NCBI GenBank assembly: GCA_965223565.1 | Contig: CBDCWV010000010.1 | Coordinates: 110,927-174,926 of the forward strand | DNA: 64,000 nucleotides | Reading direction: 5' to 3' | DNA from: Myxococcota bacterium | Lineage (GTDB): Bacteria; Myxococcota_A; UBA9160; UBA4427 | Shown: piece by piece, positions 6,174-21,200 of the stretch | Layout of the letters: each line of letters opens with the position of its first letter | Numbering within the stretch: position 1 is the first letter of the stretch | Notes under the pieces: model-generated | Told to the model about the DNA's origin: nothing | Databases searched by the model: none | The model's input: the letters and a program-made list of their open reading frames with translations, nothing else | Translations under genes and position numbers: made by a program

Positions 6174-6530
6174 ATGTCTCTCGAAGTCGGAATCGAAGAA
6201 GAGAAGAGCTACATGGTGACGGACGACATGGCGCCGGGTCACCTGCCCGCCAAGGTACTGTCGACGCCGAGCATGATCGGCCTGATCGAGGGCACCTGCC
6301 TTTTCGCAGTCCAGCCTCACCTCGAAGAGGGCCAGGTCACGGTCGGCACGCATGTCTGCGTCAGTCACGAAGGTGCTGCGGCCTCGGGACAGGAGATCCG
6401 GATCCAATGTCGCCTGACGGAGATCGACAAGCGCCGGTTGACGTTCGAGACCGAGGTCACGGTCGATGGTCGTCGCATCTCGAAGGGAACCCACCAGCGC
6501 GCGGTGATCGATCCCGCGCGCTTTGGCTAG
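6174..6530 (+). CDS. Hotdog thioesterase (FlK-like)
   Basis: VLSTPSMIGLIE (Thr, Glu), VSHEG (His), GTHQRAVI. Confidence 0.85.
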   Translation: MSLEVGIEEEKSYMVTDDMAPGHLPAKVLSTPSMIGLIEGTCLFAVQPHLEEGQVTVGTHVCVSHEGAAASGQEIRIQCRLTEIDKRRLTFETEVTVDGRRISKGTHQRAVIDPARFG

Positions 6531-6633
6531 CCGAGCGGCCCCGTTTCACTCGAGCTCTCCGCGTGGGTGTGAACGGACGCGAATCGAGATGCGAACGCGC
6601 TATCGCGCAAACGCGAGAGGGTGGAACGTTCCG

Positions 6634-7461
6634 ATGGGTGCCAGCGGCTTCGAGCGGGAGACGATCACGCGTGATTTCGGTGCCGTGCTGCACGGGCTCG
6701 ACGCACGGGATCCCGACGCGACGACCGCGCTTCGCGATGCCGTCCACGACCATGGCGTCGTCTTCCTGAGAGACCAGCATCTCGACGACGACGAACACAT
6801 CGCCGTCGCCTCCCGCTTCGGCCCGCTCGGCGTCTATCCCGTCCAGGCGGCGGCGGGTATGACCGCGCCGCTCGAGTTCATCGAGGATGGTCCCGACGAT
6901 CCGCCGAAGGCCGACGGCTGGCATACGGACGTCACCTGGGTCGAGACGCCGCCCGTGCTGGCCTTTCTCTGCATGCTCGAACGGCCGGAGCGGGGCGGGG
7001 ATACGCTCTGGGTCGATACGGCGGGGGCCTGGGACGCGCTCTCGCCCGTGATGCAGGAAATGCTCGCGGGACTCGAGCTCTTCCACGATGTCGGTTCCAG
7101 TCGCGAGGTCCTGGTCCGGAAATTCGGCGAGGACGTCGTCCTTCGCACGAAGGAGCGATTCGGCATGGGCGTCGCCCATCCGCTCGTTCGCAGCCATCCC
7201 TACACGGGCCGCAAGAGTCTATTCGTGGCCGGCTACTTCATGGATCACGTCGTAGGCATGTCCTCGGCGGAGAGCAGGGCGCTGCTCGACTTCCTGATGG
7301 CGCATGCGACGGCGCCCGAGCGCGCGATCCGATGGCGCTGGCGGGAAGGGGACCTGGCGATCTGGGACGAGCGTCGCACGATGCATCGCGCCCTGGGTGA
7401 TCATTTCCCGCTCCGCCGCCGCGTTCGCCGTTGTACAGTGATGGGCGAGCGGCCCCGCTGA
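6634..7461 (+). CDS. TauD/TfdA family 2-oxoglutarate/Fe(II) dioxygenase
   Basis: WHTDVTW, GGDTLW, HPLVRSHP, WDERRTMH. Start uncertain. Confidence 0.9.
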   Translation: MGASGFERETITRDFGAVLHGLDARDPDATTALRDAVHDHGVVFLRDQHLDDDEHIAVASRFGPLGVYPVQAAAGMTAPLEFIEDGPDDPPKADGWHTDVTWVETPPVLAFLCMLERPERGGDTLWVDTAGAWDALSPVMQEMLAGLELFHDVGSSREVLVRKFGEDVVLRTKERFGMGVAHPLVRSHPYTGRKSLFVAGYFMDHVVGMSSAESRALLDFLMAHATAPERAIRWRWREGDLAIWDERRTMHRALGDHFPLRRRVRRCTVMGERPR

Positions 7462-7502
7462 CGAGCGGCCGATCCACCGATCCGAGAGGAGGGAGGACGC
7501 GC

Positions 7503-8927
7503 GTGTCGACGACGATCTCGCAACGCGATCGGCTGGAGCGGCGTCGAGAGATCGACGCGATCCGCGCGCGCGTCGACCATCCGATCATCGACGGCGACGG
7601 GCATCTACTCGAATCGGTCCCGATGCTCTGCGACACGCTCGAGCGCGTCGCGGGGCGAGGCGTCGTCGAGGGACTGCGGCGGGTGCTGCCGGAGCTCTTC
7701 ACGGGCGAGGGATCCCGTGCCGAAGGCATGCCGCGCGGCCCCTGGTGGCCTTCGCCGACCGACGCGCACTATCAGGCGACCGTCATGGTGCCCGCGCTGC
7801 TCGCCGAGCAGCTCGACGAGATCGGACTCGATTTCGTGATCCTCTATCCGTCGCTCGGGCTCGCGCTGTGTACGATTCCCGAGGCTGAGATCCGACGCGC
7901 CTCGCTCCGTGCGCTCAACACGATGCTGGTGGAGATCTGCGCCGAGCAGGCCCGCGTGCTGACGCCAGCGGCGGTGATCCCGATGCATGCGCCGGCGGAG
8001 GCGATCGAGGCACTCGAGCACGCGAGCGAGGCGGGTCTGCGCGTGGCGATGATTCCGCCCGGCGTCGCACGGCCACTCGAGGCGCATCCGACGCTCTTTC
8101 CGCAGCTCGCCCACGTCGATCGCTTCGGCATCGACTCCGACCACGACTACGATCCGGTCTGGCGGGCCTTCGAGCGATCGGGGATCGCCGTCACGGTCCA
8201 CGGGGCGGTCGGTCTGCGCTATCTGCCCGGCGGTCGCGGTTCCCCGTCGAACTACTCCTACAATCACGTGCTCGGCCACGGCTATCTGCAGAGTGAATTC
8301 TGTCGCGCACTGGTCTATGGCGGCGTGCCGATGCGGTTTCCGGACCTGCCGTTCTGTTTTCTGGAAGGTGGCGTCGCCTGGGCGATCGAGATGCTGGGCG
8401 CGCTCGAGGAGCACTACGAGAAAAGGGGTCCTGCAGGGATCGACTGCTACGATCCGGCTCGACTCGATCACGCGCTGCTCGAACGTCTGCTCGCCGAGTA
8501 CGGTTTTCCCGCGGAGCCGCCCGAGATGGTCGGCGAGACGAATCGTTCGCCCTGGGCAAGGGACGAGTTCGAGGCCTCGGGCCTGCGCGACGAGTCCGAC
8601 CTGGCGCGCATCTTCGGCGACCAGTTCTTCTTCGGCTGCGAGTCGGACGACCCTTCGGCCCATCGTGCACTCGACGCACCGGGCAATCCGCTGCATACGC
8701 GGCTGCGCCCGGTGTTCTCCTCCGATATCGGCCATTGGGACGTGCCGCGGCTCGACGATCCGCTCCCGAACGCCTTCCGACTGGTCGAACGGGGCCTACT
8801 CTCGAAAGAGGATTTCCGCCGATTCGTCTGCGACGAGGTCGTGGCGCTTCATACGCGTTGCAATCCGGCCTTCTTCGACGGCACGAACGTCGAAGGGCGA
8901 GTCGAGACGGGAGGTGCCCCGCGATGA
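7503..8927 (+). CDS. Amidohydrolase family protein (Amidohydro_2-like)
   Basis: IIDGDGHLLE, FLEGGVAW, FSSDIGHWDV. GTG start after GGAGGA. Confidence 0.85.
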   Translation: MSTTISQRDRLERRREIDAIRARVDHPIIDGDGHLLESVPMLCDTLERVAGRGVVEGLRRVLPELFTGEGSRAEGMPRGPWWPSPTDAHYQATVMVPALLAEQLDEIGLDFVILYPSLGLALCTIPEAEIRRASLRALNTMLVEICAEQARVLTPAAVIPMHAPAEAIEALEHASEAGLRVAMIPPGVARPLEAHPTLFPQLAHVDRFGIDSDHDYDPVWRAFERSGIAVTVHGAVGLRYLPGGRGSPSNYSYNHVLGHGYLQSEFCRALVYGGVPMRFPDLPFCFLEGGVAWAIEMLGALEEHYEKRGPAGIDCYDPARLDHALLERLLAEYGFPAEPPEMVGETNRSPWARDEFEASGLRDESDLARIFGDQFFFGCESDDPSAHRALDAPGNPLHTRLRPVFSSDIGHWDVPRLDDPLPNAFRLVERGLLSKEDFRRFVCDEVVALHTRCNPAFFDGTNVEGRVETGGAPR

Positions 8928-10165
8928 ACGAGACGACGACGGCGGTCGAACGGAGCGGCGTCTTTCTCGCGCCCTATCACGCCGACGACGAGAGCCCGAC
9001 GCTCCAGGTTCGACGCGACCTCGAGCTGGCCGAGCGGCTCGATGCGCTCGGCTACGACGAGCTCTGGATCGGAGAGCACCACTCGGCGTCCTTCGAATCG
9101 ATCGCATCACCGGAGCTCTTCATCGCCGCGGCAGCGGAGCGCACCCGACGAATCCGGCTCGGTACGGGTGTCGTGTCGCTGCCCTATCACCACCCCTTCA
9201 TGGTGGCTGAACGGATCCGCCAGCTCGACCATCAGACCTGGGGTCGCGTGCTCTTCGGTGTGGGTCCGGGACAGCTGCCGTCCGACGCGCACATGTTGGG
9301 GATCGACGTGGCGCGCCAGCGCGAGCGCATGCTCGAGTCGCTCGAGGTCGTGATCGCACTGCTACGCGGAGAGTCGGTGACGCGCAAGACCGAGTGGTTC
9401 GAGCTGCGGGATGCGCGCCTCCAGCTGCGTAGCTTCAGCCGACCGGAGGTAGAGATGGCGGTCGCCGCGGCGGTCTCGCCGTCGGGGCCACGCGCGGCCG
9501 GTCGCTTCGGAATCGGCATGCTCTCGATGGCTGCGACCAGCGGCGAGGGCTTCGACCTGCTGCCCGCCCATTGGGCGGTCTGCGAGCAGCTGGCGGCCGA
9601 GCACGGGCAGACCGTGGATCGACGAAATTGGCGCCTCGTCGTACCGATGCACCTGGCCGAGTCCCGTGCGCAGGCCGAGGCAGACCTGCACCACGGCCTG
9701 CTGAAGCTCGTGCGCTATTTCGTGAAGCTCGGGGCCGAGGATCTCGGATCGATCACGACGCTCGACGCTGCGATCGAGCAATGGCGGGAGCGGGGCCTGA
9801 CGCTGCTCGGGCGTGCGGTGATCGGAACGCCCGACGACGCGGTCGAGCGGATCCGGCAGCTGCAGGCACAATCGGGCGGCTTCGGGACGATCCTGCTGCT
9901 GGCGCACGATGCGGCAGATCCGCGGGCAACCGCTTCGAGCTACGACCTCTTCGCGCGCTACGTCATGCCCGCGCTCAGGGACGAGAATCGCCTGCGGCAC
10001 GAGAGTCTCGACTGGTTCGAGCGACACAGCCACGAGATCGTGGGTGGTCTGCGCAAGGCGATCGGCGAGACCGTCGAGGCGCACGAACGCGAGCGTCGCG
10101 AGCGGGGGGAGGGCGTTGCGTGGGGCGACGCGCGCGATCTGCTCGTCGGCAAGGACGAAGATTGA
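8924..10165 (+). CDS. LLM-class flavin-dependent monooxygenase (limonene monooxygenase-like)
   Basis: WIGEHHS, LGTGVVSLPYHHPF, GVGPGQLPSD. ATGA overlap with upstream gene. Confidence 0.88.
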   Translation: MNETTTAVERSGVFLAPYHADDESPTLQVRRDLELAERLDALGYDELWIGEHHSASFESIASPELFIAAAAERTRRIRLGTGVVSLPYHHPFMVAERIRQLDHQTWGRVLFGVGPGQLPSDAHMLGIDVARQRERMLESLEVVIALLRGESVTRKTEWFELRDARLQLRSFSRPEVEMAVAAAVSPSGPRAAGRFGIGMLSMAATSGEGFDLLPAHWAVCEQLAAEHGQTVDRRNWRLVVPMHLAESRAQAEADLHHGLLKLVRYFVKLGAEDLGSITTLDAAIEQWRERGLTLLGRAVIGTPDDAVERIRQLQAQSGGFGTILLLAHDAADPRATASSYDLFARYVMPALRDENRLRHESLDWFERHSHEIVGGLRKAIGETVEAHERERRERGEGVAWGDARDLLVGKDED

Positions 10166-10242
10166 TCTGCAGGCCGCGCTGGCTCGCGTGCGCCGCTGGG
10201 GCTGAACGATTCGCGGAGAGATTCGCGCAGAAGAGGGGACTC

Positions 10243-11577
10243 ATGCGTCGATTCGTCGTTGCGCTTCTCATGGGCTCGATCGCCCTGGCGGGCTGTCAGG
10301 CACGCGCGCCGCGTGAAGACGCTCTCCGCGGCTTCTCCGCCGATCGCCTCGGACGCGTGACCGAGCGATTGCAGCGCCACGTCGAGGCGGGGGCGATCGC
10401 AGGCGTCGTGGCCCTCGTCGCGCGGGACGATCGGATCGTGCATCGCACCGTCCTCGGCGATCGCGACCGTGAGGCCGAGCTCGCCATGCAGGCCGATACG
10501 ATCTTTCGCGTCTACTCCATGTCGAAGCCGATCACGAGCGTGGCCGCGTTGATTCTCGTGGAGGAGGGGCGGCTGCGGCTATCGGATCCGGTCGATCACT
10601 GGCTGCCCGAGCTGTCGAAGCCTCGGGTCCTGCTGAAGCCCGATGGTCCCCTCGACCAGACGCGGCCCGCCAAGGGGCCGATCACCGTGCGCGATCTCCT
10701 CACGCATACATCGGGCCTCGCCTACGACTTCACGAGTCAGGGCCCGCTCTCCGGAGCGCTCACCGAGCGCGGACTCCGCGGCAGCAGCGCGAAGCTCCCG
10801 CCCGACGAATACCTGAAACGACTGGGCGCGCTGCCGCTGCTATTCGACCCGGGCACGCGTTGGCACTACAGCCTGTCGACCGACGTGCTGGGCGTCCTCG
10901 TGGCACGCGCGTCGGGCATGTCGCTCCCCGATTTTCTGCGGAGCCGCATCTTCGAGCCGCTCGGCATGGTCGATACCGCGTTCTGGGTGCCCCCGGAGAA
11001 GCTCGATCGCTTCGCGGCCAACTACGCGTTCGACGACGAACGCGGCGAGCTCGTCCTGTTCGATGCGCCGGCGACCAGTGACTACCGGAACGAGCCCGCC
11101 TTTCCATCCGGCGGCGGCGGACTCGTTTCGACGGCCCGGGACTACCTGCGCTTCGCTCAGATGATGACCGGCGGCGGCGAGCTCGACGGCGTGCGGATCC
11201 TCTCGCCCGTCGGTCACAGGCTGATGACTACGAACGCACTCTGGCCCGGAGAACGCCCGGAATCCCCGTTCGGTGCGCGGTTCTTCCTCGCGGGTACGGG
11301 ATTCGGTCTCGGCGTCGCGGTGATCGAGGACCCGGGCATGGGGGTCCAATACGGCTCGATCGGCCTGAACGGCTGGGGTGGGGCGGCAGGCACCTGGTAC
11401 TGGTCGGATCCCATGGAGGGCATCTCCGCGGTCATGATGGTCCAGCGCATGAGCCAGGGGCCGGGCCCCGCGATCAGCCTCGACTTCCAGACCATGGTCT
11501 ATCAGGCCCTCGAAGTCCGCCGCGGCCCTGGCTTGCCGAGTCAGCCGGCGCCCAACAACGTGTCGACCGCGGAATAG
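10243..11577 (+). CDS. Serine hydrolase, beta-lactamase-related lipoprotein
   Basis: Lipobox ALAGC, YSMSKP (SxxK), LLTHTSG, WHYS, GWGGAAGT. Confidence 0.88.
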   Translation: MRRFVVALLMGSIALAGCQARAPREDALRGFSADRLGRVTERLQRHVEAGAIAGVVALVARDDRIVHRTVLGDRDREAELAMQADTIFRVYSMSKPITSVAALILVEEGRLRLSDPVDHWLPELSKPRVLLKPDGPLDQTRPAKGPITVRDLLTHTSGLAYDFTSQGPLSGALTERGLRGSSAKLPPDEYLKRLGALPLLFDPGTRWHYSLSTDVLGVLVARASGMSLPDFLRSRIFEPLGMVDTAFWVPPEKLDRFAANYAFDDERGELVLFDAPATSDYRNEPAFPSGGGGLVSTARDYLRFAQMMTGGGELDGVRILSPVGHRLMTTNALWPGERPESPFGARFFLAGTGFGLGVAVIEDPGMGVQYGSIGLNGWGGAAGTWYWSDPMEGISAVMMVQRMSQGPGPAISLDFQTMVYQALEVRRGPGLPSQPAPNNVSTAE

Positions 11578-12521
11578 GGGTCGACGTCCCCCGCACGCAG
11601 CGCATCGAGGATTGCCGCGCCGCCGCACGGCGCCTCGGCCAGCACCCGGGCTGCCGCGCGTTCGCGCAGCAGGTCGTGGAATACGCGTTCCCGTCGTCGG
11701 ATCGCCTTGCGTGCGAGCTGGCCGGAGGCCTCGAGATGACGCCTGTGTGCCTCGAGCAGATCGACGAGCTCTGCGATCCCCCGTGCACGCTCGGCCTCGG
11801 TCTTGACGATCGGCGGCGACCAGACGTCGACCGCCGACTCGTCGTTCGCGGCATCTCCGCCGCGAGCCGCAGGCGCTCTCAAGTGCAACATCGCCGTCAG
11901 CTGCTTGGCGACGCGGTCCGCGCCCGGGAGGTCCGCCTTGTTCACGATGAAGACGTCGCCGATCTCGAGGATGCCGGCCTTGATCGCCTGGATGTCGTCG
12001 CCCATGCCCGGAATGCTGACGACCGCCGTCGTGTGAGCGAGCTCGACGACATCGACCTCGTCCTGGCCGACACCAACGGTCTCGATCAGGACGACGTCGT
12101 ACCCCATCGCATCGAGCACCGTCGTCGCCTCGAAGCTCGCCCGCGCGAGTCCACCCAGCTGCCCGCGCGTGGCCATCGAACGGATGAAGACACCCGGATC
12201 GGTCGCGTGGGTCTGCATGCGCACACGATCGCCGAGGATCGCGCCGCCCGAGAAGGGACTCGACGGATCGACCGCGATCACGCCGACGCGGCGCTCGCGG
12301 CGCCGCAGCTCAGCCACGATCCGGTCGACGAGCGTCGACTTGCCCGCACCCGGCGGCCCGGTGATGCCGAGCAGGTGGGCCCGACCGGCGAAGGGCAGCA
12401 GCGCGCGAAGTCCGTCGATCGCGCCCGGCTCGCCCTCTTCGAGCATCCGGATCAGACGAGCGCCCGAGACCTGGTGTCCCTCACGCGCCTTCTCGGCCAG
12501 CACGATCGGATCGCGGCTCAC
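11541..12521 (-). CDS. meaB: Mutase-associated GTPase metallochaperone MeaB
   Basis: GPPGAGKST, DPSSPFSGGAILGDRVRM, ETVGVGQDE, NKAD. Confidence 0.93.
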   Translation of the reverse strand: MSRDPIVLAEKAREGHQVSGARLIRMLEEGEPGAIDGLRALLPFAGRAHLLGITGPPGAGKSTLVDRIVAELRRRERRVGVIAVDPSSPFSGGAILGDRVRMQTHATDPGVFIRSMATRGQLGGLARASFEATTVLDAMGYDVVLIETVGVGQDEVDVVELAHTTAVVSIPGMGDDIQAIKAGILEIGDVFIVNKADLPGADRVAKQLTAMLHLRAPAARGGDAANDESAVDVWSPPIVKTEAERARGIAELVDLLEAHRRHLEASGQLARKAIRRRERVFHDLLRERAAARVLAEAPCGGAAILDALRAGDVDPYSAVDTLLGAG

Positions 12522-12940
12522 GCCTCACGATCCTGAGCCCGTCGTTGGTCCCACCATTCGCGAATGAACGTCGCGATCTCCCCCGTATGCGCGCCCATCG
12601 TGAAGATCCGATCGACGCCCTGGGCTTCGAGTGCCTCGGCGTCTTCGTCGGGCACGACGCCGCCGACGACCACGAGCTTGTCGTCGATCTCCGCGTCGCG
12701 GAGGCGCTCGAGCACCTTGGGAATATGCTGCATGTGTGCGCCGGAGAGACTCGAGATGCCGACGACGTCCACGTCTTCCTGGATCGCGGCCTGGACCACC
12801 ATGTCGGGGGTCTGGCGCAAGCCCGTGTAGATCACCTCCATCCCGGCGTCGCGCAGGGACTGCGCGATCACGGTGACGCCGACCGTGTGACTGTCGAGTC
12901 CGAGCTTTGCGAGCAGGACCCGGATCTTGCGTTCGGCCAT
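12518..12940 (-). CDS. Cobalamin-binding small subunit of acyl-CoA mutase family
   Basis: AKLGLDSHTVG (DxHxxG), YTGLRQTP, SSLSGAH. Coupled to flanking genes by short overlaps. Confidence 0.93.
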   Translation of the reverse strand: MAERKIRVLLAKLGLDSHTVGVTVIAQSLRDAGMEVIYTGLRQTPDMVVQAAIQEDVDVVGISSLSGAHMQHIPKVLERLRDAEIDDKLVVVGGVVPDEDAEALEAQGVDRIFTMGAHTGEIATFIREWWDQRRAQDREA

Positions 12941-14682
12941 CAGACGCCCGAGGTGAGCGAGTCGGGATGGTAGACTCCGAACACCTCGCGCATCACATCG
13001 CAGATCTCGCCCTGGGTCGCGTAGGCCTTCACGGCCTCGAGGATCGGGGGCACGAGATTGTCGTCGCCGGTAGCGGCCTGGCGCACGCGGTCGAGGGTCT
13101 TTTGCACGAGCTCCTCGTCGCGATCGGCGCGCACACGCGTCAGCTGCGCGACCTGCTTGCGTTCCGCCTCCTGCCCGAGCTTGAAGACCTCGATCGAACG
13201 ATTCTCGTCCTGCTGGACGAGATGGTTCACACCGATCTGCTTGCGCGTTCCCTGCTCGATCTCCTGGTGGCGATCGCGCTGGGAGCGGGCGAGCTCCTTC
13301 TGGAAATAGCCCACCTCGATCGCGGCGAGCGCACCTCCCATCGCGTCGATCTTCTCGATCTCGGCCATCACCTCGTCTTCCATGCGCCGGGTCATCGATT
13401 CGAGCATGTAGGAGCCTGCGAGCGGATCGACCGTATCGGCGACGCCGGTCTCGTGCGCGACGATGTTCTGGACGGCGATCCCGACCCGCACGGCGTCCTC
13501 GCTGGGAAGGGCGTGGGCCTCGTCGTGGAGCGGCGTCGTGATCGCGTAGGCGCCGCCGCCGAGGGCGCAGGCGAGCGTCATGATGCCGAGTCGGGCGATG
13601 TTGTTGAGCGGCTGCTGGAGCGTCATGGCAGTCGTGCCCGGCGAGCTGATCAAGCGCAGCTGCATCGACTCGTGCTTCTGCGCGCCGTAGCGCTCCTTCA
13701 TCAGGCGCGCCCAGACCTTGCGGTAGGCCCTGAGCTTCGCGATCGCCTCGAAGAAATCCATCTCGAGGCCCGTCACGAAGCTCCAATAGGGCGCCACCTC
13801 GTCGATCTCGAAGCCGCGCGCAAGCGTGGCGTCGAGATATTCCATCGCGATCGCGAAGCCGAAGGCGAGCTCCTGCACGGGCGTTGCCCGGGCGGCGTAG
13901 ATCTGCGCGCTCACGACCGTGATCGGGATCCAGCTCGGATGATGACGGATGACGTACTCGATGCAGTCGGTCGCGATCCGCAATCCGTGCTTGGGCGGAT
14001 AGATGTAGCGACCGACGCAGGTGTATTCGATCAGGATCGCGTTGGACATCTGGAGCGTGAAGCTGGCCGGATCGATGTCCTTCTTTTCGAGCGCGGCCAG
14101 GATCATCGCGAGGTTGACGGGCTGCGGCGCATTGCAGACGGAATTCAGGTGCTGCAGCTTGTCCCAGGGCAGGTCGAGGGCCTTCTCCATGTCGGCGAGC
14201 GTGTCGACCGCCGTGCCTGCGCGCGCGACCTCGCCCTCGGCGAGCGGATGATCGGAGTCGTAGCCGTTCGTGGTCGGCAGGTCGTACTCGATGATGAAGC
14301 CGTTGAGTCCCTGCTCGAGCATCTTCGACCATCGCTCGGCCGAGTCGTCGGCCGTTCCGAAACCCGTCACCTGGAGCATCTTCCAGAAATCCTGGCGATA
14401 GCCGGCAGGCGTCGTGCCACGCGTGTAGGGGAACTGGCCGGGAAAGCCGAGATCCCGGGCGTAGTCGAAGTCGATCGCTGCGAGATCACGCGGCGTGTAG
14501 AGATCCTTGACCGGCCACTGCATCTGCTGCGTGACGAACTGCTTCTCGCGCTCCGGGTGCTCGGCGAGCGCCGGGTCGAGCACCTCGCGGCGCCACTTCG
14601 CCTCGGCCTCTTCGATCGCTGCGTCGTTCCTGTCCTCGCTCGGTCGATCGTCGGAGATCGCTTCGCGTTCTGCTGTGGCCAT
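12940..14682 (-). CDS. Methylmalonyl-CoA mutase family large (catalytic) subunit, highly divergent active site
   Basis: PGQFPYTRG, DLPT..GYDSDHP, YIYPP, QQPLNN, DEA.ALP, DPLAGSY. Specificity motifs are non-canonical. Confidence 0.9.
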   Translation of the reverse strand: MATAEREAISDDRPSEDRNDAAIEEAEAKWRREVLDPALAEHPEREKQFVTQQMQWPVKDLYTPRDLAAIDFDYARDLGFPGQFPYTRGTTPAGYRQDFWKMLQVTGFGTADDSAERWSKMLEQGLNGFIIEYDLPTTNGYDSDHPLAEGEVARAGTAVDTLADMEKALDLPWDKLQHLNSVCNAPQPVNLAMILAALEKKDIDPASFTLQMSNAILIEYTCVGRYIYPPKHGLRIATDCIEYVIRHHPSWIPITVVSAQIYAARATPVQELAFGFAIAMEYLDATLARGFEIDEVAPYWSFVTGLEMDFFEAIAKLRAYRKVWARLMKERYGAQKHESMQLRLISSPGTTAMTLQQPLNNIARLGIMTLACALGGGAYAITTPLHDEAHALPSEDAVRVGIAVQNIVAHETGVADTVDPLAGSYMLESMTRRMEDEVMAEIEKIDAMGGALAAIEVGYFQKELARSQRDRHQEIEQGTRKQIGVNHLVQQDENRSIEVFKLGQEAERKQVAQLTRVRADRDEELVQKTLDRVRQAATGDDNLVPPILEAVKAYATQGEICDVMREVFGVYHPDSLTSGV

Positions 14683-14781
14683 GGGTCTGGAGCTCCTGGC
14701 GCCGGTGGGGCGGTCCTCTGGGGCGGATCGAAGGCGCCCGGGACGAGAGAGCGCCACCTGGAATATCGCTGGCTGGCCAGC

Positions 14782-14804
14782 AAAAACAACCTAGAGTTGC
14801 TTTT
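14782..14804. promoter_or_regulatory. Putative TetR operator (imperfect inverted repeat)
   Basis: AAAAACAAC-CTAGA-GTTGCTTTT. AT-rich palindrome abutting the TetR ATG, between divergent genes. Confidence 0.6.
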
Positions 14805-15482
14805 ATGTCCGGGCATGTCGTACCGACGCGAGCCGATGGGGACCTCGAACGCGCCAACGCGCGTGCGCCTGCGACGGCACGCGCACGACGGCGTCCTGGG
14901 GGTCGCAGCGCGCGGGTGCGCGAGGCGATCCTCACGGCGACGCTCGAGCTGCTCGCGAGCGAGGGATTCGCCGGGGTCAGCCTACCGGGCGTCGCGCGTC
15001 GCGCCGGCGTCAACAAGACGACGGTCTACCGCGGCTGGTCCACGCCTCAAGCGCTCGTCCAGGAGGCGCTCGCCGGCTTCGAGGCCCTGGCTCTACCCGA
15101 TATCGATACGGGAAGCTGGGAGGGCGACGTCGAGGCCTTCGCCCTGGCGCGGCTGAAGCTGATCCGCGATCCGCTCGCGGCCGGAATCCTGCGGGCCGTG
15201 ATCGCGATCGGTCCGGGCGACGCGACGCGCGCCGCCTGGGTGGAGGGCTTCTGGGCACCGCTCGAGCGCGCCTGGCGCTCGCCGGTCGAACGCGCGATCG
15301 AACGCGGCGAGCTGGCCGTGTCGGCGCGCAGTGTGCCGCTCGTCGAGCTCGTCGCCGGCCCGCTCCTCCTGAGTCATCTCGCGACGGAGAAGCCACTCGA
15401 GCGACACGAGGTCGCGGCATTGGTCGCCACGATCGCGGCCGGTGTGCGGGTGGTCCACGGCCGTGAGCAGGTCGCCCGCTGA
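14805..15482 (+). CDS. TetR/AcrR family transcriptional regulator
   Basis: RRPGGRSARVREAIL, HTH VARRAGVNKTTVYRGW, C-terminal PDIDTGSWEGD. Confidence 0.9.
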   Translation: MSGHVVPTRADGDLERANARAPATARARRRPGGRSARVREAILTATLELLASEGFAGVSLPGVARRAGVNKTTVYRGWSTPQALVQEALAGFEALALPDIDTGSWEGDVEAFALARLKLIRDPLAAGILRAVIAIGPGDATRAAWVEGFWAPLERAWRSPVERAIERGELAVSARSVPLVELVAGPLLLSHLATEKPLERHEVAALVATIAAGVRVVHGREQVAR

Positions 15483-15545: not shown

Positions 15546-16316
15546 CTAGCGATCCGCCGAAGACATCCGTTCGAGCTCCGAGTAGCCCGGCAGCTGCGAC
15601 AGGTCCGGGACGACGACGATCTCGATCCGACGATTCTGCCGACGGTCCTCGGCCGTGTCGTTCGACGCGATCGGCATCGTCTCTCCGTAGCTGACCGCAC
15701 TGACGCGCTTCGGATCCATCCCACGATCGACCATCAGGCGCACGACGGAGATCGCTCGCGCCGCCGCCAGCTCCCAGTTCGACGGAAAGGTGGCCGTGCG
15801 GATCGGCACGTTGTCCGTATGACCCTCGATCTGGTAGCGCCGATCGGCCAGGTCCGAGAGCAGGCCGCTCACCTCTTCGATCGCTGCCTTGCCGTCCTTC
15901 GATAGACGCGCCGAGCCGGAGCCGAACAGGACGTCGGTCTGCATCTGAACGACCATGCGGCCGTTGATCACGCTGACCGTGAGCTTGCCCGCGTCGACCA
16001 TGGCGCGGAATTTCTCCGTCAGCTCCCGGAACTGAGTGATGCGACGCTCGGCCTGCTGCTCGCGCTCGCGTAGATCCGCGAGTGCGCGTTCGGTCTCGGA
16101 GAGGTCTCCCGCGAGCTGATCGCGGCGATTCGCGGTCTGTGCAAGGCTCGCCTGGAGCGACTCGATTTGGGACCGCGCGTCCGCGAGCTCGCGTTTCGTC
16201 TTGGCGTGAGCCAGGTCGAGCTCCGTATACCGGCCGGAGCTGACGCAGCCCGCGAGACTGCTCGCGAGCAGGAGCCCGGCGAAGAGCCCGACCGCCGATC
16301 GAAGATGCTGGTGCAT
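15546..16316 (-). CDS. OmpA/MotB-family lipoprotein with coiled coil
   Basis: Lipobox SLAGC, DVLFGSGSA, IEGHTD, NWELAAARA, QNRRIEI. Confidence 0.88.
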   Translation of the reverse strand: MHQHLRSAVGLFAGLLLASSLAGCVSSGRYTELDLAHAKTKRELADARSQIESLQASLAQTANRRDQLAGDLSETERALADLREREQQAERRITQFRELTEKFRAMVDAGKLTVSVINGRMVVQMQTDVLFGSGSARLSKDGKAAIEEVSGLLSDLADRRYQIEGHTDNVPIRTATFPSNWELAAARAISVVRLMVDRGMDPKRVSAVSYGETMPIASNDTAEDRRQNRRIEIVVVPDLSQLPGYSELERMSSADR

Positions 16317-16614
16317 TCTGTAGTTCCCCCGGCGGCAGAGAATCGAACACCCGCACGTGCGTCGCAATCCGGAGATCCCCACGCTCGCCCAAGCGTCGCA
16401 TCGCGAATCCGCGGCCTGTAGATTCACGTTTCCCGAAAAGAATCGAGGTTGCGCTTGGACCGCTCGATCGCGCTGATCCTCCGCCTGTTCTGCCTGGGCC
16501 AGCTCTTCGAGTGTGTCCGGCCTTTCACGAGGGTGCGTCGAACGACCCGGTCGCGTACCGCGAGGCACACCGAGACCATCTCGGCGTATCGGAGGTCCTG
16601 CACGGCGGACGGGG

Positions 16615-17100
16615 TCATCGATCGAGCTCGGGCGCGGCAGCCCACCAGGCGCCGACCAGACAGCCGATCGCGAGTGCGGAAGCCAGGACGTGAAGTCCCT
16701 GCGCGATCGCTTCGCAGGATTCCAGCAGACCCCAGCGACCGAGTAGCCAGTTCCAGTCGTGAATGTGACCGCCCACGAGGGGAAGGGCCTGTGCCTGCGC
16801 ATCCCCCAGGTATCGCGCCGCATACATCATGCTCTCTGCCAGCCAGATGCCCATCAACCAGGCAGCGAAGAGCTGTCGTGTCGCGACGAACTGGACGGCA
16901 CAGGCGACGGGAAAGAAGAGCTGACCGATCGTGCCGCCCAGAAACTGCGCGGTCTCGCCGAAGAAGGCGAAAAAGACGTGGCCCGCCTCGTGGAAGAGCA
17001 GATTCACCCCGTCCAGGAAGTGGTATTCGTAGGCGAAGACCAGCCAAGCGACGTAGGCGAGGACGGGAAGCAGGAAGGCGCGTTTCGCCGAGATCGACAC
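16615..17100 (-). CDS. Small membrane protein with HExxH motif (peptidase M50B-like)
   Basis: Hydrophobic helices, LLFHEAGHVFF, GHIHDWNWLL. Confidence 0.7.
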   Translation of the reverse strand: MSISAKRAFLLPVLAYVAWLVFAYEYHFLDGVNLLFHEAGHVFFAFFGETAQFLGGTIGQLFFPVACAVQFVATRQLFAAWLMGIWLAESMMYAARYLGDAQAQALPLVGGHIHDWNWLLGRWGLLESCEAIAQGLHVLASALAIGCLVGAWWAAAPELDR

Positions 17101-18339
17101 CTAGCGGACGAGTCCCCGTGCGAGCAGGTCGTCCGCGATGAAGCGCGAAGCGAAGTCGTGGGCCGTCTCGTTCCAATGCCCTGTGCCCATCCGGGTGTTC
17201 TCGAAGCCGTGCAGATAGACGTTCTGCTCCGTGGCAACTCGCTGGAGGCGTTCCGTCAAGCCGATCATGTGGAAGCCGTGACGCTCGGCGATCGCTCGCA
17301 GGCGACGCTCGGGATAGAGGAGGTCCGGCGCGCCGAGATCCCGAGCGAGTCTCTCGCGTCGTGCCGCGTCCGGATCGACCGCCGCCTGGGACGTGATCGA
17401 AACGACGACGAAGGGCGCGCCGACCGCCTGTGCTTCGCGATTGATCTCGCCGAGCAGTGCCTCGGTCAGTCGCCAGGCTCGCTGCCACTCCTCGGTCGCG
17501 GGCGGCAGGAATTGGGTGTCGGTCGTACCGAGCTCGGGCCGGGTGTCCGCCTTGGCGGTCTCTTTCGTCGCGGTTCTCCCGACCTCCCGCACAGCCGACT
17601 CGTCGTCGGCCGCTACGGCCTCCGCGCTCTCGTGCTCGGCCTGAAGACGACGGATCGCGATCTGTCTCCGAAGCTGATTCACGACCTCGAGAATTCGGGA
17701 GTGGTGCGTCGCGCTCAGCAGGAAGCGTCGTCGCAGACTCCCGAGGCTCCACTCACGAAAGGACGAATCGAGCACGAGCTTTCCCTCCTCCAGCGAGTAG
17801 AAAGGACGAAAGCGCTCGCCCCTCAAGCGAATGCTCAGGCTCTTCGTGTTGTTGACGAGATCATTTCCCCCGTAGAATCCCAGCAGGACGAGGTCGGGCT
17901 CGAAGCGCGAGGCGTCGCGGCGTAGGGTGATCAGCTCTTCGGCCTGTCCGTAGCCACCGATTCCGAAGTTCAGGACCTCGATACGGCGTCCGTCGCTTCG
18001 CTCGTCTGCGTTCAGGCGATGCTCGAGTCGCTTCCAGTAGGTGTCTTCGATCTCGACCTGCCGCGCCTCGGTAAACGAGTCGCCTAGCACGGCGATCCGA
18101 AACACCCCCTCGGGCTTCTCGAGGTCATGCTCGACGTCGCGATAGCCATACTGGTTGATCGCAAGATTCGAATAGCCCTCGCGATCGTAGATCCCCTTCT
18201 TCCCCGGCTCGAGCGCGACGGCCCGGTCGTGATCGTAGGCGTCGAAGATCGGAAACGTCACGCCTGCGAGGCGAAGCCCGATCTCGACGATCGCGACACC
18301 GACGAGCAGAAGAACGATCCGCGCGAGAGCTACCTTCAC
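17101..18339 (-). CDS. SGNH/GDSL hydrolase family, membrane-anchored
   Basis: N-terminal TM, LGDSFTE, NFGIGGYG, GGNDL, GHWNETAH. Confidence 0.85.
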   Translation of the reverse strand: MKVALARIVLLLVGVAIVEIGLRLAGVTFPIFDAYDHDRAVALEPGKKGIYDREGYSNLAINQYGYRDVEHDLEKPEGVFRIAVLGDSFTEARQVEIEDTYWKRLEHRLNADERSDGRRIEVLNFGIGGYGQAEELITLRRDASRFEPDLVLLGFYGGNDLVNNTKSLSIRLRGERFRPFYSLEEGKLVLDSSFREWSLGSLRRRFLLSATHHSRILEVVNQLRRQIAIRRLQAEHESAEAVAADDESAVREVGRTATKETAKADTRPELGTTDTQFLPPATEEWQRAWRLTEALLGEINREAQAVGAPFVVVSITSQAAVDPDAARRERLARDLGAPDLLYPERRLRAIAERHGFHMIGLTERLQRVATEQNVYLHGFENTRMGTGHWNETAHDFASRFIADDLLARGLVR

Positions 18340-18396
18340 TTCGTCCCCCGGACCCCACGATCTCCTCGGGCACTCTAGGCGTTGGTCGAGTCGGCG

Positions 18397-20553
18397 TCAC
18401 GACCGGGAGGACGGCAGGAAGAAGATCGGCGAGGACCAGGCGCGCTCTCCGACCGGTGCCAGGCAATCGTCGGGGGCCACCCCCGGCGGTGGCGCCCGAC
18501 ATAGCTCGACTGCGATACAGCGTCCCGAGTCGTCGCGCTCGCATCGAAGCGGATCACCATTGATCGCCGGCGTCGCCTCCTGAACGATTCGCACGTAGTA
18601 GGCGGTCTCCCGCTCCGGAGCGGTGCCCTCAGGATCGTCGAATTCCACCCGGCAGCCTACGGCGGGATCGGCTGGACAGTCGAAGACCCGCCAGGGATCC
18701 TCGATGCGCGCGGCAATCGCCGCTTCGCCGCGTGGCCCCGGAGAGATGCGTACGACTTCGACCCGCTCGATCCCATGTCGCTCGTCCGAGGGATGGTGGC
18801 ACTCGCCCAGGCAGAGCGACGCAATCCGCTCGGCCGAGAGTGCCGCGTGCACGAAATCGGGGCAGCCCGGTCGTTGACGGCGCGCACCCAGGACCCGGAC
18901 CTCGAATCGAAACCGTGAACCCCTTCGTGCCGTGATCTCCGACCCCATAGGGTGCCGCCGCCCCGCGTCGTCGATGGCGTCGAAGTGCAGCACGATTCGC
19001 GCGCCCGAGGTGCCGTAGACGCGCTTGCGCGAGAGTGCATCGAAGATGCTGTCGCGATCCCGTGCGGTCGCGTGCACGGCCGTGAGGCCCCCGCTGTAGT
19101 AGTAGGCCGTGTGACGGGGATCGAAGAAGTCGGCCGGCAGGGGATATCGGACGCCATCGGTCATGACGAGTCGCGCGAACTCCTTGTAGCCCGTACCGGG
19201 GCGACTGCGATGCGTGTCGCTCGCGGCGACGAATCCGAACCGAAAGCGATCGTCGACGCGCTTGCCTTCCACGTCGGCCAGGGCGAGGGCGTACTGCGCG
19301 CTCTGTCGCGGTCGGTAGGTCCAGGCGGGCATGAACGCCGATTCCAATTGACCGCAATCGCCCCAATCTTCGGGTGTCGTGCCCGCGACCGCATCGGTGA
19401 GCGAACCGAGCCCGCCGTAGGAGGAATCCACCCCGGCGGCCGCCTGCACCGCCTCGTCGACCGCAATCTCACACGCCGCACTCTCGACATCGTCACATCG
19501 GGCGCGCGCCAGTCGGGCTGCCCGTTCGCAGCAGAGCTCGATCCCGGGTCCCGTCGACGGGCAGTGGTAGCGTTTATCCGCGTCCCGAGCGGGCCGTTCG
19601 AATTCGACGTAGCGCTCGGAGTTCCCGTGGCCGGAATAGACCTCGAGCAGGCGTTGCCAGCGGGGATCGTGCTGCTCGAGCTGGAGATCGAGACGCGCGT
19701 GGGCCGGATTCGTCGTGCCCCAGGCGAGTCCGTGGGGAATCACGAGTGCGCGATGGTTCCACTCGTCGAGCTTTCGGAACAGGTCGCGCGGTGTGGCTGC
19801 CGACTCGCGGCAGTCGAGCGGGAGCGCCCGGACGGGCACGTCTGGCGGGCAGTCCTCGACGGCGGTGGCGTCGAAGAGATAGCGATGGAAGCTCGCGAAA
19901 TCCGAGTAGCGGCGCTCGCCCATCAGAACGCCCAGCGTTCCAATCCCGCCGAAGGGCCAGGCGAATCCGGGAGCCGAGGCGATCGGGCGCGCAGGAATCG
20001 CCTCGTCGGCCAGGTCCGCGAGAACGACGTTCTTGTGCCCGTAGTGGCGCTCCGGGCGATCGGCATGCGACCACTCCCAGCCGAGGAAGCTCACGAGATC
20101 GGGCTGTTCGGAATCGCCGGCGATCGCGTCGCAGGCGCGCACGGCCTCGATCGTCGCGCGCCAATGTGCGGGCGTCAGGCTCTCGGCATGGTCGTTGATG
20201 CTCCAGAAATCGAGCTGTGAGCAGAAACGAGCGAAGTCACAGGCGTCGGCCGGCGTCCGCCTCATGTCGAGGCCTTCGATCTGATAGGACTGGAGAAACG
20301 AATCCGCGCTGTAGTTCGTGTGCACGTGAAGATCGCCGAACAGAACCTGCTCCGATCCTTCCGCGGTAGCGTCGCCCGGTCGGCGAACGACGGGCCTGGC
20401 CCGATTCGTCGGCTCGCCCACGAGCATCGGTTCTCCCTGACGCGCGGAGTGCCATGTCATGGCGTAGAGCGAGGCAAGAGTGAAGAGGAGGATCGAAACC
20501 ACGATGCCGAGCGCGATCGCAGCGTAACGAATGGCTCGCTTCAGGAGGCCCAT
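18397..20553 (-). CDS. DUF3604 family protein (PHP-like metal-binding)
   Basis: N-terminal TM, LFGDLHVHT, LDFWSINDHAE, FLGWEWS, YGTSG, ERAWSSPI. Confidence 0.85.
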   Translation of the reverse strand: MGLLKRAIRYAAIALGIVVSILLFTLASLYAMTWHSARQGEPMLVGEPTNRARPVVRRPGDATAEGSEQVLFGDLHVHTNYSADSFLQSYQIEGLDMRRTPADACDFARFCSQLDFWSINDHAESLTPAHWRATIEAVRACDAIAGDSEQPDLVSFLGWEWSHADRPERHYGHKNVVLADLADEAIPARPIASAPGFAWPFGGIGTLGVLMGERRYSDFASFHRYLFDATAVEDCPPDVPVRALPLDCRESAATPRDLFRKLDEWNHRALVIPHGLAWGTTNPAHARLDLQLEQHDPRWQRLLEVYSGHGNSERYVEFERPARDADKRYHCPSTGPGIELCCERAARLARARCDDVESAACEIAVDEAVQAAAGVDSSYGGLGSLTDAVAGTTPEDWGDCGQLESAFMPAWTYRPRQSAQYALALADVEGKRVDDRFRFGFVAASDTHRSRPGTGYKEFARLVMTDGVRYPLPADFFDPRHTAYYYSGGLTAVHATARDRDSIFDALSRKRVYGTSGARIVLHFDAIDDAGRRHPMGSEITARRGSRFRFEVRVLGARRQRPGCPDFVHAALSAERIASLCLGECHHPSDERHGIERVEVVRISPGPRGEAAIAARIEDPWRVFDCPADPAVGCRVEFDDPEGTAPERETAYYVRIVQEATPAINGDPLRCERDDSGRCIAVELCRAPPPGVAPDDCLAPVGERAWSSPIFFLPSSRS

Positions 20554-20714
20554 CCGATTCCGTTCTCCTCGCCGTTTTCTGGTCTCGATGGTAGTCGCGC
20601 TCGCGTGCGCTGCACGCTGCTGCGGCCGAGCCGCGAACGGAGCCGGCTCGCTCGATTGAGCTTTCCAAGAGAGCGAGATAGCGTCGGGCGCACGAGTGAT
20701 GGAAGGAGCACGAC

Positions 20715-21200
20715 GTGGACAGTGTTCAGGAGCTGATCGAGATCGAGGCCATCAAGCGACTGAAAGGCCGCTATGTCCGTGCCGTCGATACCAAGGACTG
20801 GGAGCTGCTGGCGAGCACGTTCACGCCGACGGCACGGAGCGTCTACAACGACGGGATCTTCGCCTTCGAAGGACGCGACGAGATCATCGCCTTTCTCAAG
20901 GGAGCGCTCGACACGAAGGTGATCGTCTCGATGCACCATGCGCATACGCCGGAAATCGAGATCACCGGCGAGAGCTCGGCACGCGGCACCTGGTATCTCG
21001 AGGACACCGTGATCAACCCCGGCGACGCGACCGAGCACAACCCGGCGAAGAACGTGATGGTCGGGACCGGGATCTACCACGACGAGTACACGAAGGTCGA
21101 CGGTGCGTGGCTGATCGCCCTCACGGGCTACGAGCGGATCTTCGAGTACAGCTCGCCCGTCCACCCGAAGGCGACCCTGCGTACACGCTGGCATCGCTGA
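20715..21200 (+). CDS. SnoaL_4/NTF2-like protein (BaiE-like)
   Basis: IEAIKRLKGRYVRAVDTKDW, HHAHTPEI, GIYHDEY. Confidence 0.85.
   Translation: MDSVQELIEIEAIKRLKGRYVRAVDTKDWELLASTFTPTARSVYNDGIFAFEGRDEIIAFLKGALDTKVIVSMHHAHTPEIEITGESSARGTWYLEDTVINPGDATEHNPAKNVMVGTGIYHDEYTKVDGAWLIALTGYERIFEYSSPVHPKATLRTRWHR

Follow-up and report, generated by a model that had tools for sequence, protein, structure and literature searches.

A probable adenosylcobalamin-dependent mutase operon from a Myxococcota bacterium belongs to a conserved clade with a replaced substrate pocket

A 64,000-nucleotide stretch of the genome of a Myxococcota bacterium (contig CBDCWV010000010.1; the whole stretch is called the window, and positions are numbered from its first nucleotide) contains an operon for a large barrel subunit of a mutase, a small cobalamin-binding subunit, and the G-protein chaperone MeaB (Table 1). 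Judged from sequence and predicted fold, the operon probably encodes a heteromeric adenosylcobalamin (AdoCbl)-dependent radical isomerase from a discrete, conserved, and uncharacterised clade of the acyl-coenzyme A (CoA) mutase superfamily, with a substrate other than the known short acyl-CoAs. The large subunit matched PF01642 over residues 55-569 with 504.6 bits (cut-off 22.1) and TIGR00641 with 469.1 bits (cut-off 303.8). The small subunit matched PF02310 (92.3 bits) and TIGR00640 (145.6 bits), as well as the PDB chains 2yxb_A (131.6 bits) and HcmB 4r3u_C (116.3 bits), and MeaB matched PF03308 (310.8 bits) and TIGR00750 (339.3 bits, cut-off 240.75). The whole-barrel profile match, the barrel fold described below, the cobalamin-binding subunit, and the associated MeaB all place the operon in the superfamily.

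An AGGAG lies about 10 nt 5' of the large-subunit ATG. The large-subunit TGA overlaps the small-subunit ATG (TGATG), and the small-subunit stop overlaps the MeaB GTG start (GTGA), as expected from a preliminary description of this DNA, which had proposed that the three genes are translationally coupled. That description also took the cofactor machinery to be intact, and this was borne out. The small subunit carries KLGLDSHTVG (K...DxHxxG), SSLSGAH (SxL), and VVGGV (GG), and these motifs are kept across 73 small subunits of the family, by which we mean the close homologs of the window operon. All G motifs are present in MeaB, including GPPGAGKS, ETVGVGQ, and NKAD, and they are kept across 63 orthologs.

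Table 1. Position, strand, and family assignment of the operon genes and the adjoining regulator in the window
Feature	Position	Strand	Family or basis
Large (TIM-barrel) subunit of AdoCbl-dependent mutase, 580 aa	12940..14682	-	PF01642, TIGR00641
Small cobalamin-binding subunit, 140 aa	12518..12940	-	PF02310, TIGR00640
MeaB G-protein chaperone, 326 aa	11541..12521	-	PF03308, TIGR00750
TetR-family regulator, divergent to mutase	14805..15482	+	PF00440 + PF16859
Mutase/TetR divergent intergenic region	14683..14804	.	sequence reading

The residues of the substrate pocket were mapped by HMMER alignments of the large subunit (the query) to 2-hydroxyisobutyryl-CoA mutase (HCM, 4R3U) and to methylmalonyl-CoA mutase (MCM) from human (2XIJ), M. 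tuberculosis (6OXC), and P. shermanii (5REQ). P. shermanii numbering, used throughout for canonical residues, was calibrated on 5req_A, a Y89F chain in which the residue number is the chain index + 1. The four alignments yielded an identical mapping. Every active-site substitution that had been listed in the preliminary description was reproduced, and no displaced copy of the canonical motifs was found in the query. Replacements that are fixed in the family are M78→G94, Y89→V105, S114→I130, S164→L179, T195→Q211, Q197→S213 (P in most family members), D199→A215, K202→I218, R207→V223, Y243→A259, H244→Q260, E247→A263, R283→Y299, H328→I345, Q330→S347, T331→P348, H364→T382, and N366→P384; those at S114, S164, T195, K202, R283, T331, H364, and N366 are additional to the earlier list. 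Family-variable replacements in the query are Y75→T91, T77→A93, R82→D98, T85→K101, R87→L103, and Q361→Y379, while S285 and E370 are retained.

In MCM, we take Y89 and R207 to bind the carboxylate, H244 the thioester carbonyl, R82 and R87 the nucleotide, and E370 the ribose, with small Ser/Thr residues lining the tunnel. Across MCM, isobutyryl-CoA mutase (ICM), and HCM, Y89, R207, and Q197 presumably hold the carboxylate or alkyl group, H244 with Y243 presumably holds the thioester carbonyl, and S114, S164, T195, R283, H328, and Q330 are assumed to hold the CoA arm. Among about 20 such CoA or substrate contact positions only S285 is retained and about 19 are changed; at T85 and Q361 about half of the family members have the canonical residue. 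The replacement set (V105, V223, A259, Q260, I130, L179, Y299, and S347-P348) appears to form a pocket that is mostly more hydrophobic than the canonical one, if the roles known from solved structures carry over. Besides the replacements, E132, C183, C222, and R225 are invariant in the family. Candidates for new polar pocket residues are E132 (at the position of HCM D117), Q260, R225, Y299, C183, and C222. The large subunits of the clade carry the motifs QV[TS]GFGT, NAILIEYTCVGRY, VSAQ, SSPGT, and T.PLHDEAH.

We examined conservation in two sets, one of 120 homologs with 67-88% identity plus the query (121 sequences) and one of 59 sequences with identity down to 59% from Myxococcota, Binatia, Alphaproteobacteria, and Gammaproteobacteria. 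In both sets, the replacements show little or no variation. Identical in 121/121 sequences are Q104-V105, N214, I216-Y226 (ILIEYTCVGRY), A259-Q260, S347-P348-G-T, P384-L385, D387-E388, and H390, and invariant in 59/59 are V105, L179, S181, C183, N214, V223, A259, Q260, Y299, S347, P348, and E388. The equivalents of Y75, R82, R87, and Q361 vary freely among the 121 sequences. The N-terminal segment PGEYPYTRGT.P.GYR..LW, which corresponds to the CoA lid, shows high overall conservation. Of 79 columns conserved at ≥90% in 25 canonical representatives, 45 are kept in the family, including GYDSD, D369-E370, and many glycines and prolines, and 34 are changed, mostly at barrel-strand and barrel-lining positions. 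With the replacements invariant and the outer positions variable, the pattern is that of a pocket re-specified rather than released from selection. The rewritten sites are under purifying selection with no sign of relaxation, and the earlier argument against decay is thus upheld.

The family also stands apart from the known mutases. The large subunit is 36.7% identical to HCM and 31.5% to human MCM, and its best PDB sequence match was HCM 4r3u_A (387 bits). It scored far below the cut-offs of the MCM equivalog NF006944 (379.7 bits, cut-off 876), IcmF NF045497 (172.1 bits, cut-off 1500), and MutA TIGR00642 (144.9 bits, cut-off 617.25). The residues agree: V105, V223, S/P213, A259, and Q260 take the places of Y89, R207, Q197, Y243, and H244 in MCM; Phe89, Gln207, and Y243/H244 of ICM and IcmF are replaced by Val, Val, and Ala/Gln; and Ile90, Asp117, Gln208, and GYH of HCM (HcmA numbering) correspond to V105, E132, V223, and SAQ. 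Pivalyl-CoA mutase (PCM) and ethylmalonyl-CoA mutase (ECM) have their own signature at positions 89 and 207 with Y243/H244 conserved, and the absence of Y243/H244 argues against membership in either group as far as residue patterns can tell.

When 1.84 billion library representatives at 50% identity were searched, the family came down to essentially a single cluster at that level (60% identity, 801 bits), and the next full-length match had only 42% identity (454 bits). In a FastTree phylogeny of 147 sequences, for which library representatives were selected by similarity to the query, the family was monophyletic (support 100, stem length 0.41) and sister to two other non-canonical representatives, and HCM, ICM-type, and MCM sequences were placed elsewhere. 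Together with the failed equivalog cut-offs, this agrees with the earlier proposal of an uncharacterised subfamily. The family was nested in a wider 38-row clade (support 99), of which it is the most derived branch. The wider clade mostly keeps Y89, Q197, and R207 and has lost Y243, H328, and Q330. The CoA-lid residues Y75, M78, R82, and R87 are retained at 0-25% in the 38-row clade vs 64-75% in the other 107 representatives, and E370 is universal across the compared mutase rows. Loss of the CoA lid may extend to a much larger uncharacterised clade.

An AlphaFold2 model of the large subunit, made from the family alignment, had a predicted local distance difference test score (pLDDT) of 80.9, a predicted template modelling score of 0.85, and eight strands, which corresponds to the (beta/alpha)8 barrel of the catalytic chains of MCM and HCM. 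The best Foldseek match was HCM 4r3u_A with a template modelling score (TM) of 0.90 and a root-mean-square deviation of 2.3 A, followed by MCM alpha chains (TM 0.84-0.87). MutA chains fit the model worse (TM about 0.62).

The assembly (6.8 Mb, 94% complete) encodes five PF01642 proteins: a canonical MCM, an IcmF-like fusion, a 689-aa protein, a 575-aa protein, and the window mutase. The other four keep Q197, K202, Y243, and H244, and the rewritten signature occurs only in the window mutase. There are at least four MeaB copies, and the three besides that of the window adjoin or are fused to the MCM, IcmF-like, and 689-aa genes. Since at least three of the paralogs have MeaB copies of their own, the window operon is an extra, separately serviced enzyme with a dedicated MeaB. 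The TetR-linked cassette in the window is the only family copy in the genome.

Three other regions of this genome are related to the mutases. About 85 kb upstream on the same contig (C10:22151-28348) are the IcmF-like fusion (MeaB + mutase, 1253 aa), a 731-aa MCM, and an adjacent MeaB. A protein of the wider 38-row clade is encoded at C16:937349-939049, together with a small subunit of its own, a KstD-like flavoprotein, and amidohydrolases. The region C15:492156-503792 is syntenic with those family loci of other Myxococcota that carry a major facilitator superfamily (MFS) transporter gene (Sulfotransfer_3, glutathione S-transferase, MFS<, EthD>, DUF1214<, PAS histidine kinase<). It lacks the cassette of large-subunit, small-subunit, and MeaB genes, the gap between MFS and EthD is 166 bp, and a 368-aa open reading frame (ORF) without a Pfam match follows EthD. 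This region looks like an empty site.

The distribution of the family is patchy. Of 401 genomes sampled from the phylum, 12 carry it, and all 12 belong to a single order; within the genus, 2 of 11 genomes have it. Other carriers are Steroidobacteraceae, Halieaceae, and sphingomonads, among them cultured strains, and the family is also found on Sphingobium megaplasmids. Cultured carriers are Sphingobium herbicidovorans MH, Haliea salexigens DSM 19537, Croceicoccus estronivorus MH-B5, and Novosphingobium aquimarinum, and further carriers are marine and soil metagenome-assembled genomes of Myxococcota. In another genome of the same genus (G098, C23:126245-127939), a large-subunit ortholog with 87% identity is interrupted by a single in-frame TAA, which could reflect either a pseudogene or an error in sequencing and fits the patchy distribution.

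A survey of homologous loci, in which the ORFs of 81 loci were clustered, showed that the core of large subunit, small subunit, and MeaB is constant. A gene for a 214-aa EthD-domain protein is directly downstream in 31 of 63 loci. In two loci (L045 and L048) the EthD gene sits between the large- and small-subunit genes, a gene order that points to the EthD protein as an integral partner of the enzyme. In Proteobacteria, genes for a short-chain dehydrogenase/reductase (SDR) and a SnoaL-like protein precede the operon, which is flanked by AraC or TetR regulators, TonB receptors, sulfotransferases, and genes for the synthesis of 3'-phosphoadenosine 5'-phosphosulfate. In Myxococcota, a divergent MFS transporter or TetR gene adjoins the operon, and sulfotransferase and P450 genes recur. 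Among 115 neighbour genes from sphingomonads and Halieaceae, the Pfam tally was SDR 19, AraC 10, EthD 8, SnoaL_4 7, and sulfotransferase 5, while 115 genes from Myxococcota were mixed, with sulfotransferase (4) and glyoxalase (4) in the lead. No AMP-binding or CoA-transferase family was among the top 25 Pfams of either batch (230 neighbour genes). The PROSITE AMP-binding pattern matched 3 of 1229 neighbour genes in the 81 loci, a count that is only indicative, and CoA ligases thus appear almost absent. The PROSITE patterns for acyl-CoA dehydrogenase (ACAD) and thiolase proved insensitive, with zero matches although ACADs are present.

Enzymes of CoA metabolism do occur near some operons. A co-directional crotonase gene is directly upstream in L012, L014, and L033, an ACAD gene follows MeaB in L080 and L083, and FadB-like and ACAD genes are 6-9 kb upstream in the S. 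herbicidovorans locus. In L103 (S. herbicidovorans MH pMSHV 363967-389646), a mutase-EthD operon is behind two AraC regulators and beside P450 and ferredoxin genes; this layout resembles the ethRABCD ether-degradation cluster, in which EthD was first named. The occurrence in Steroidobacteraceae, C. estronivorus, and tomatine degraders, together with neighbouring genes for KshA-like proteins and extradiol dioxygenases, hints at a link to steroid catabolism; those two kinds of gene are several kb away and in a subset of loci only. A paper on estradiol in Novosphingobium mentions only the canonical MCM pathway, and a paper on tomatine in Sphingobium, with its supplements, does not mention the mutase.

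The TetR-family regulator beside the window operon is likely to be a ligand-responsive repressor of the mutase operon, and its arrangement with the mutase recurs in an 84%-identical locus (L001/L011). A simple scan of the intergenic region found no sigma-70 consensus promoter or intrinsic terminator. Beside the TetR start (14770-14810) there is an AT-rich imperfect palindrome, AAAAGCAAC-TCTAG-GTTGTTTTTGC (minus strand), which is a candidate TetR operator and might have a regulatory role. At the other end, MeaB is convergent with a beta-lactamase-family gene and overlaps it by 37 bp. This gene belongs to a plus-strand flank (6523-11577) that also encodes a TauD-family dioxygenase, an amidohydrolase_2, and a luciferase-like monooxygenase. 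The flank beyond TetR (15546-21200) encodes an OmpA-like protein, a GDSL lipase, a DUF3604 protein, and a SnoaL_4 protein, and the last shares an ORF cluster with a protein encoded repeatedly next to the mutases of Proteobacteria. The window has a G+C content of about 67%, and the stretch was found in five metagenome-type sequencing runs.

By homology with MCM and HCM, MeaB would deliver AdoCbl to the small subunit, where it would be bound base-off/His-on through DSHTVG. Binding of the substrate would close the barrel over the upper corrin face, the Co-C bond would be homolysed, and the 5'-deoxyadenosyl radical would take a hydrogen from the substrate, followed by a 1,2-shift and return of the hydrogen. 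The substrate is predicted not to be methylmalonyl-, isobutyryl-, 2-hydroxyisobutyryl-, or a similar short acyl-CoA, because the known contact residues are replaced by a different, family-invariant set. The proposal of a different substrate in the preliminary description stands in that the pocket is distinct and conserved in the family; the substrate may also be bulkier, or be something other than a CoA ester. The likeliest substrate, an oxygenated and hydrophobic compound (alicyclic or branched), would belong to an accessory pathway that is most likely catabolic and regulated by TetR or AraC proteins. Elsewhere, the pathway would be linked to SDRs, SnoaL-like proteins, an EthD-domain protein, sulfotransferases, P450s, and uptake transporters.

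Several observations weigh against a new radical isomerase of this kind. The equivalent of E247, which in MCM presumably contacts the cofactor/substrate region, is never Glu or Asp (17 family rows sampled), and Val takes the place of Y89, a residue that contributes to Co-C homolysis in MCM. With both lost, cofactor activation may be different or weak. Loop 385-393 (PLHDEAHAL) and residues 353-356 of the model have pLDDT <50, and the roles of the pocket residues are drawn from structural literature on MCM, HCM, and IcmF. None of the EthD, SDR, and SnoaL partners known from other loci is present in the window operon. A full-text search of the available literature library found no paper on the clade. 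Dozens of other PF01642 clades in the 50%-identity library have non-canonical signatures, and a rewritten active site is therefore not unique in PF01642, which lowers the surprise.

The nature of the substrate admits two readings, each of which we consider quite possible though short of probable. The enzyme could still be an acyl-CoA mutase that binds the thioester in a modified way and has a pocket for a large hydrophobic acyl group (steroid-, terpenoid-, or branched-alkyl-derived). Alternatively, it could act on a substrate without CoA, such as a free keto- or hydroxy-acid or an alicyclic ketone from the neighbouring SDRs, and would then be the first of its kind in the MCM fold family. To our knowledge, all PF01642 enzymes characterised to date act on CoA esters, a precedent that favours the former, as do HCM as the closest solved relative, the crotonase, ACAD, and FadB-like neighbours, and the conserved N-terminal segment. 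However, S285 is the only one of about 20 CoA or substrate contacts that is kept (T85 and Q361 in about half of members), the equivalents of R82 and R87 are unconstrained, bulky Ile and Leu side chains occupy the pantetheine-tunnel positions S114 and S164, where MCM has small polar residues, and AMP-binding and CoA-transferase genes are rare or missing in the neighbourhood counts above. A CoA-free substrate would account for an inner pocket that is fixed but different, with outer nucleotide-contact positions free to vary, and for the change of tunnel-lining Ser/Thr to Ile/Leu/Gln/Tyr. It is also consistent with the lid loss common to the wider 38-row clade, with the MFS genes that adjoin the Myxococcota operons, and with neighbourhoods dominated by TonB receptors, SDRs, SnoaL, EthD, sulfotransferases, and P450s. 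On the other hand, it has no precedent in the family, the residue roles are carried over from other mutases, and absence from a neighbourhood says little in genomes where unlinked CoA ligases abound; the wider-clade member at C16:937349-939049 is near an AMP-binding fragment and a thiolase-like gene (read by eye). Residue patterns and gene context thus lean against canonical CoA binding, whereas family precedent and the occasional CoA-enzyme neighbours lean the opposite way. We tentatively suggest that this may be the first MCM-fold member to use a CoA-free substrate, in which the tunnel is filled in and a free oxygenated hydrophobic molecule is bound, in a pathway of EthD with SDR, SnoaL, and sulfotransferase proteins for branched or alicyclic compounds.

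It is improbable that the large subunit is an inactive paralog comparable to the MutA beta subunit of MCM, with a structural, regulatory, or cobalamin-storage role. Loss of Y89, Y243, H244, and E247, whose mutation cripples MCM, would fit such a role, as would the weak TIGR00642 match (144.9 bits) and the in-frame TAA in the ortholog of the same genus. But the replacement residues are invariant instead of drifting, the operon has no catalytic large-subunit partner, and it has an intact B12-binding subunit and a dedicated MeaB of its own; furthermore, the MutA score is far under its cut-off and catalytic chains fit the model better than MutA chains. That the protein is an ordinary MCM, ICM, or HCM in which misalignment hid the canonical residues was worth considering, given that the first alignment was made by eye, and is now hardly credible. 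The four HMMER alignments, MAFFT alignments, and the structural match give the same mapping, the MCM and IcmF equivalog models fail (379.7 vs 876 and 172 vs 1500 bits), and a canonical MCM and an IcmF-like gene are present elsewhere in the genome. We rejected a misaligned ordinary mutase on these computational grounds (concordant alignments and failed equivalog cut-offs).

The carbon-skeleton mutases that depend on AdoCbl are few, and the assignments of ICM, ECM, HCM, and PCM each opened a metabolic pathway and gave biocatalysts for tertiary or quaternary carbons. With its cofactor apparatus kept and its pocket strictly conserved but different, the clade is a well-defined candidate for new radical chemistry, and its occurrence in culturable bacteria makes its function directly testable. 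If the substrate proved to be without CoA, the defining binding mode of the family would need revision, and many annotations as 'methylmalonyl-CoA mutase family protein' would be misleading. The tight linkage to EthD could give this orphan domain a function.

Among known systems, MutA is similar as a barrel-subunit paralog that has lost catalytic and tunnel residues. However, MutA binds no cobalamin, always pairs with an active MutB, and drifts in sequence, whereas in the family the changed residues are invariant, the mutase comes with a B12 subunit and a MeaB of its own, and the operon contains only one barrel gene. MCM (P. shermanii 1REQ, human 2XIJ) shares the fold, DxHxxG, a MeaB/MMAA chaperone, GYDSD, and D369-E370, but its Y89, Q197, R207, Y243, H244, E247, H328, and Q330 are all replaced in the family. 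HcmAB with MeaH from Aquincola tertiaricarbonis (4R3U) has the same split layout of a barrel subunit of about 560-580 aa and a B12 subunit of about 135-140 aa, with a G-protein chaperone. It also has an acidic residue, D117, at the position of the family-invariant E132, and some family loci share an ecological link to P450/EthD-type oxidation systems. In contrast, HCM keeps I90, Q208, the equivalents of Y243/H244, E247, H328/Q330, and a YTMRxR CoA lid, for which the family has V, V, A/Q, A, I/S, and a variable lid, and HCM operons carry a ligase for 2-hydroxyisobutyryl-CoA (2-HIBA-CoA) that the family loci lack. The split into large and small subunits is shared with ICM. The IcmF-like paralog (and likewise pivalyl-CoA mutase) changes two to three pocket residues and keeps Y243/H244 and the CoA contacts, while the family changes about 19 of about 20. 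ICM/IcmF and pivalyl-CoA mutase are nonetheless precedents for a new specificity on the same scaffold, reached through positions 89 and 207.

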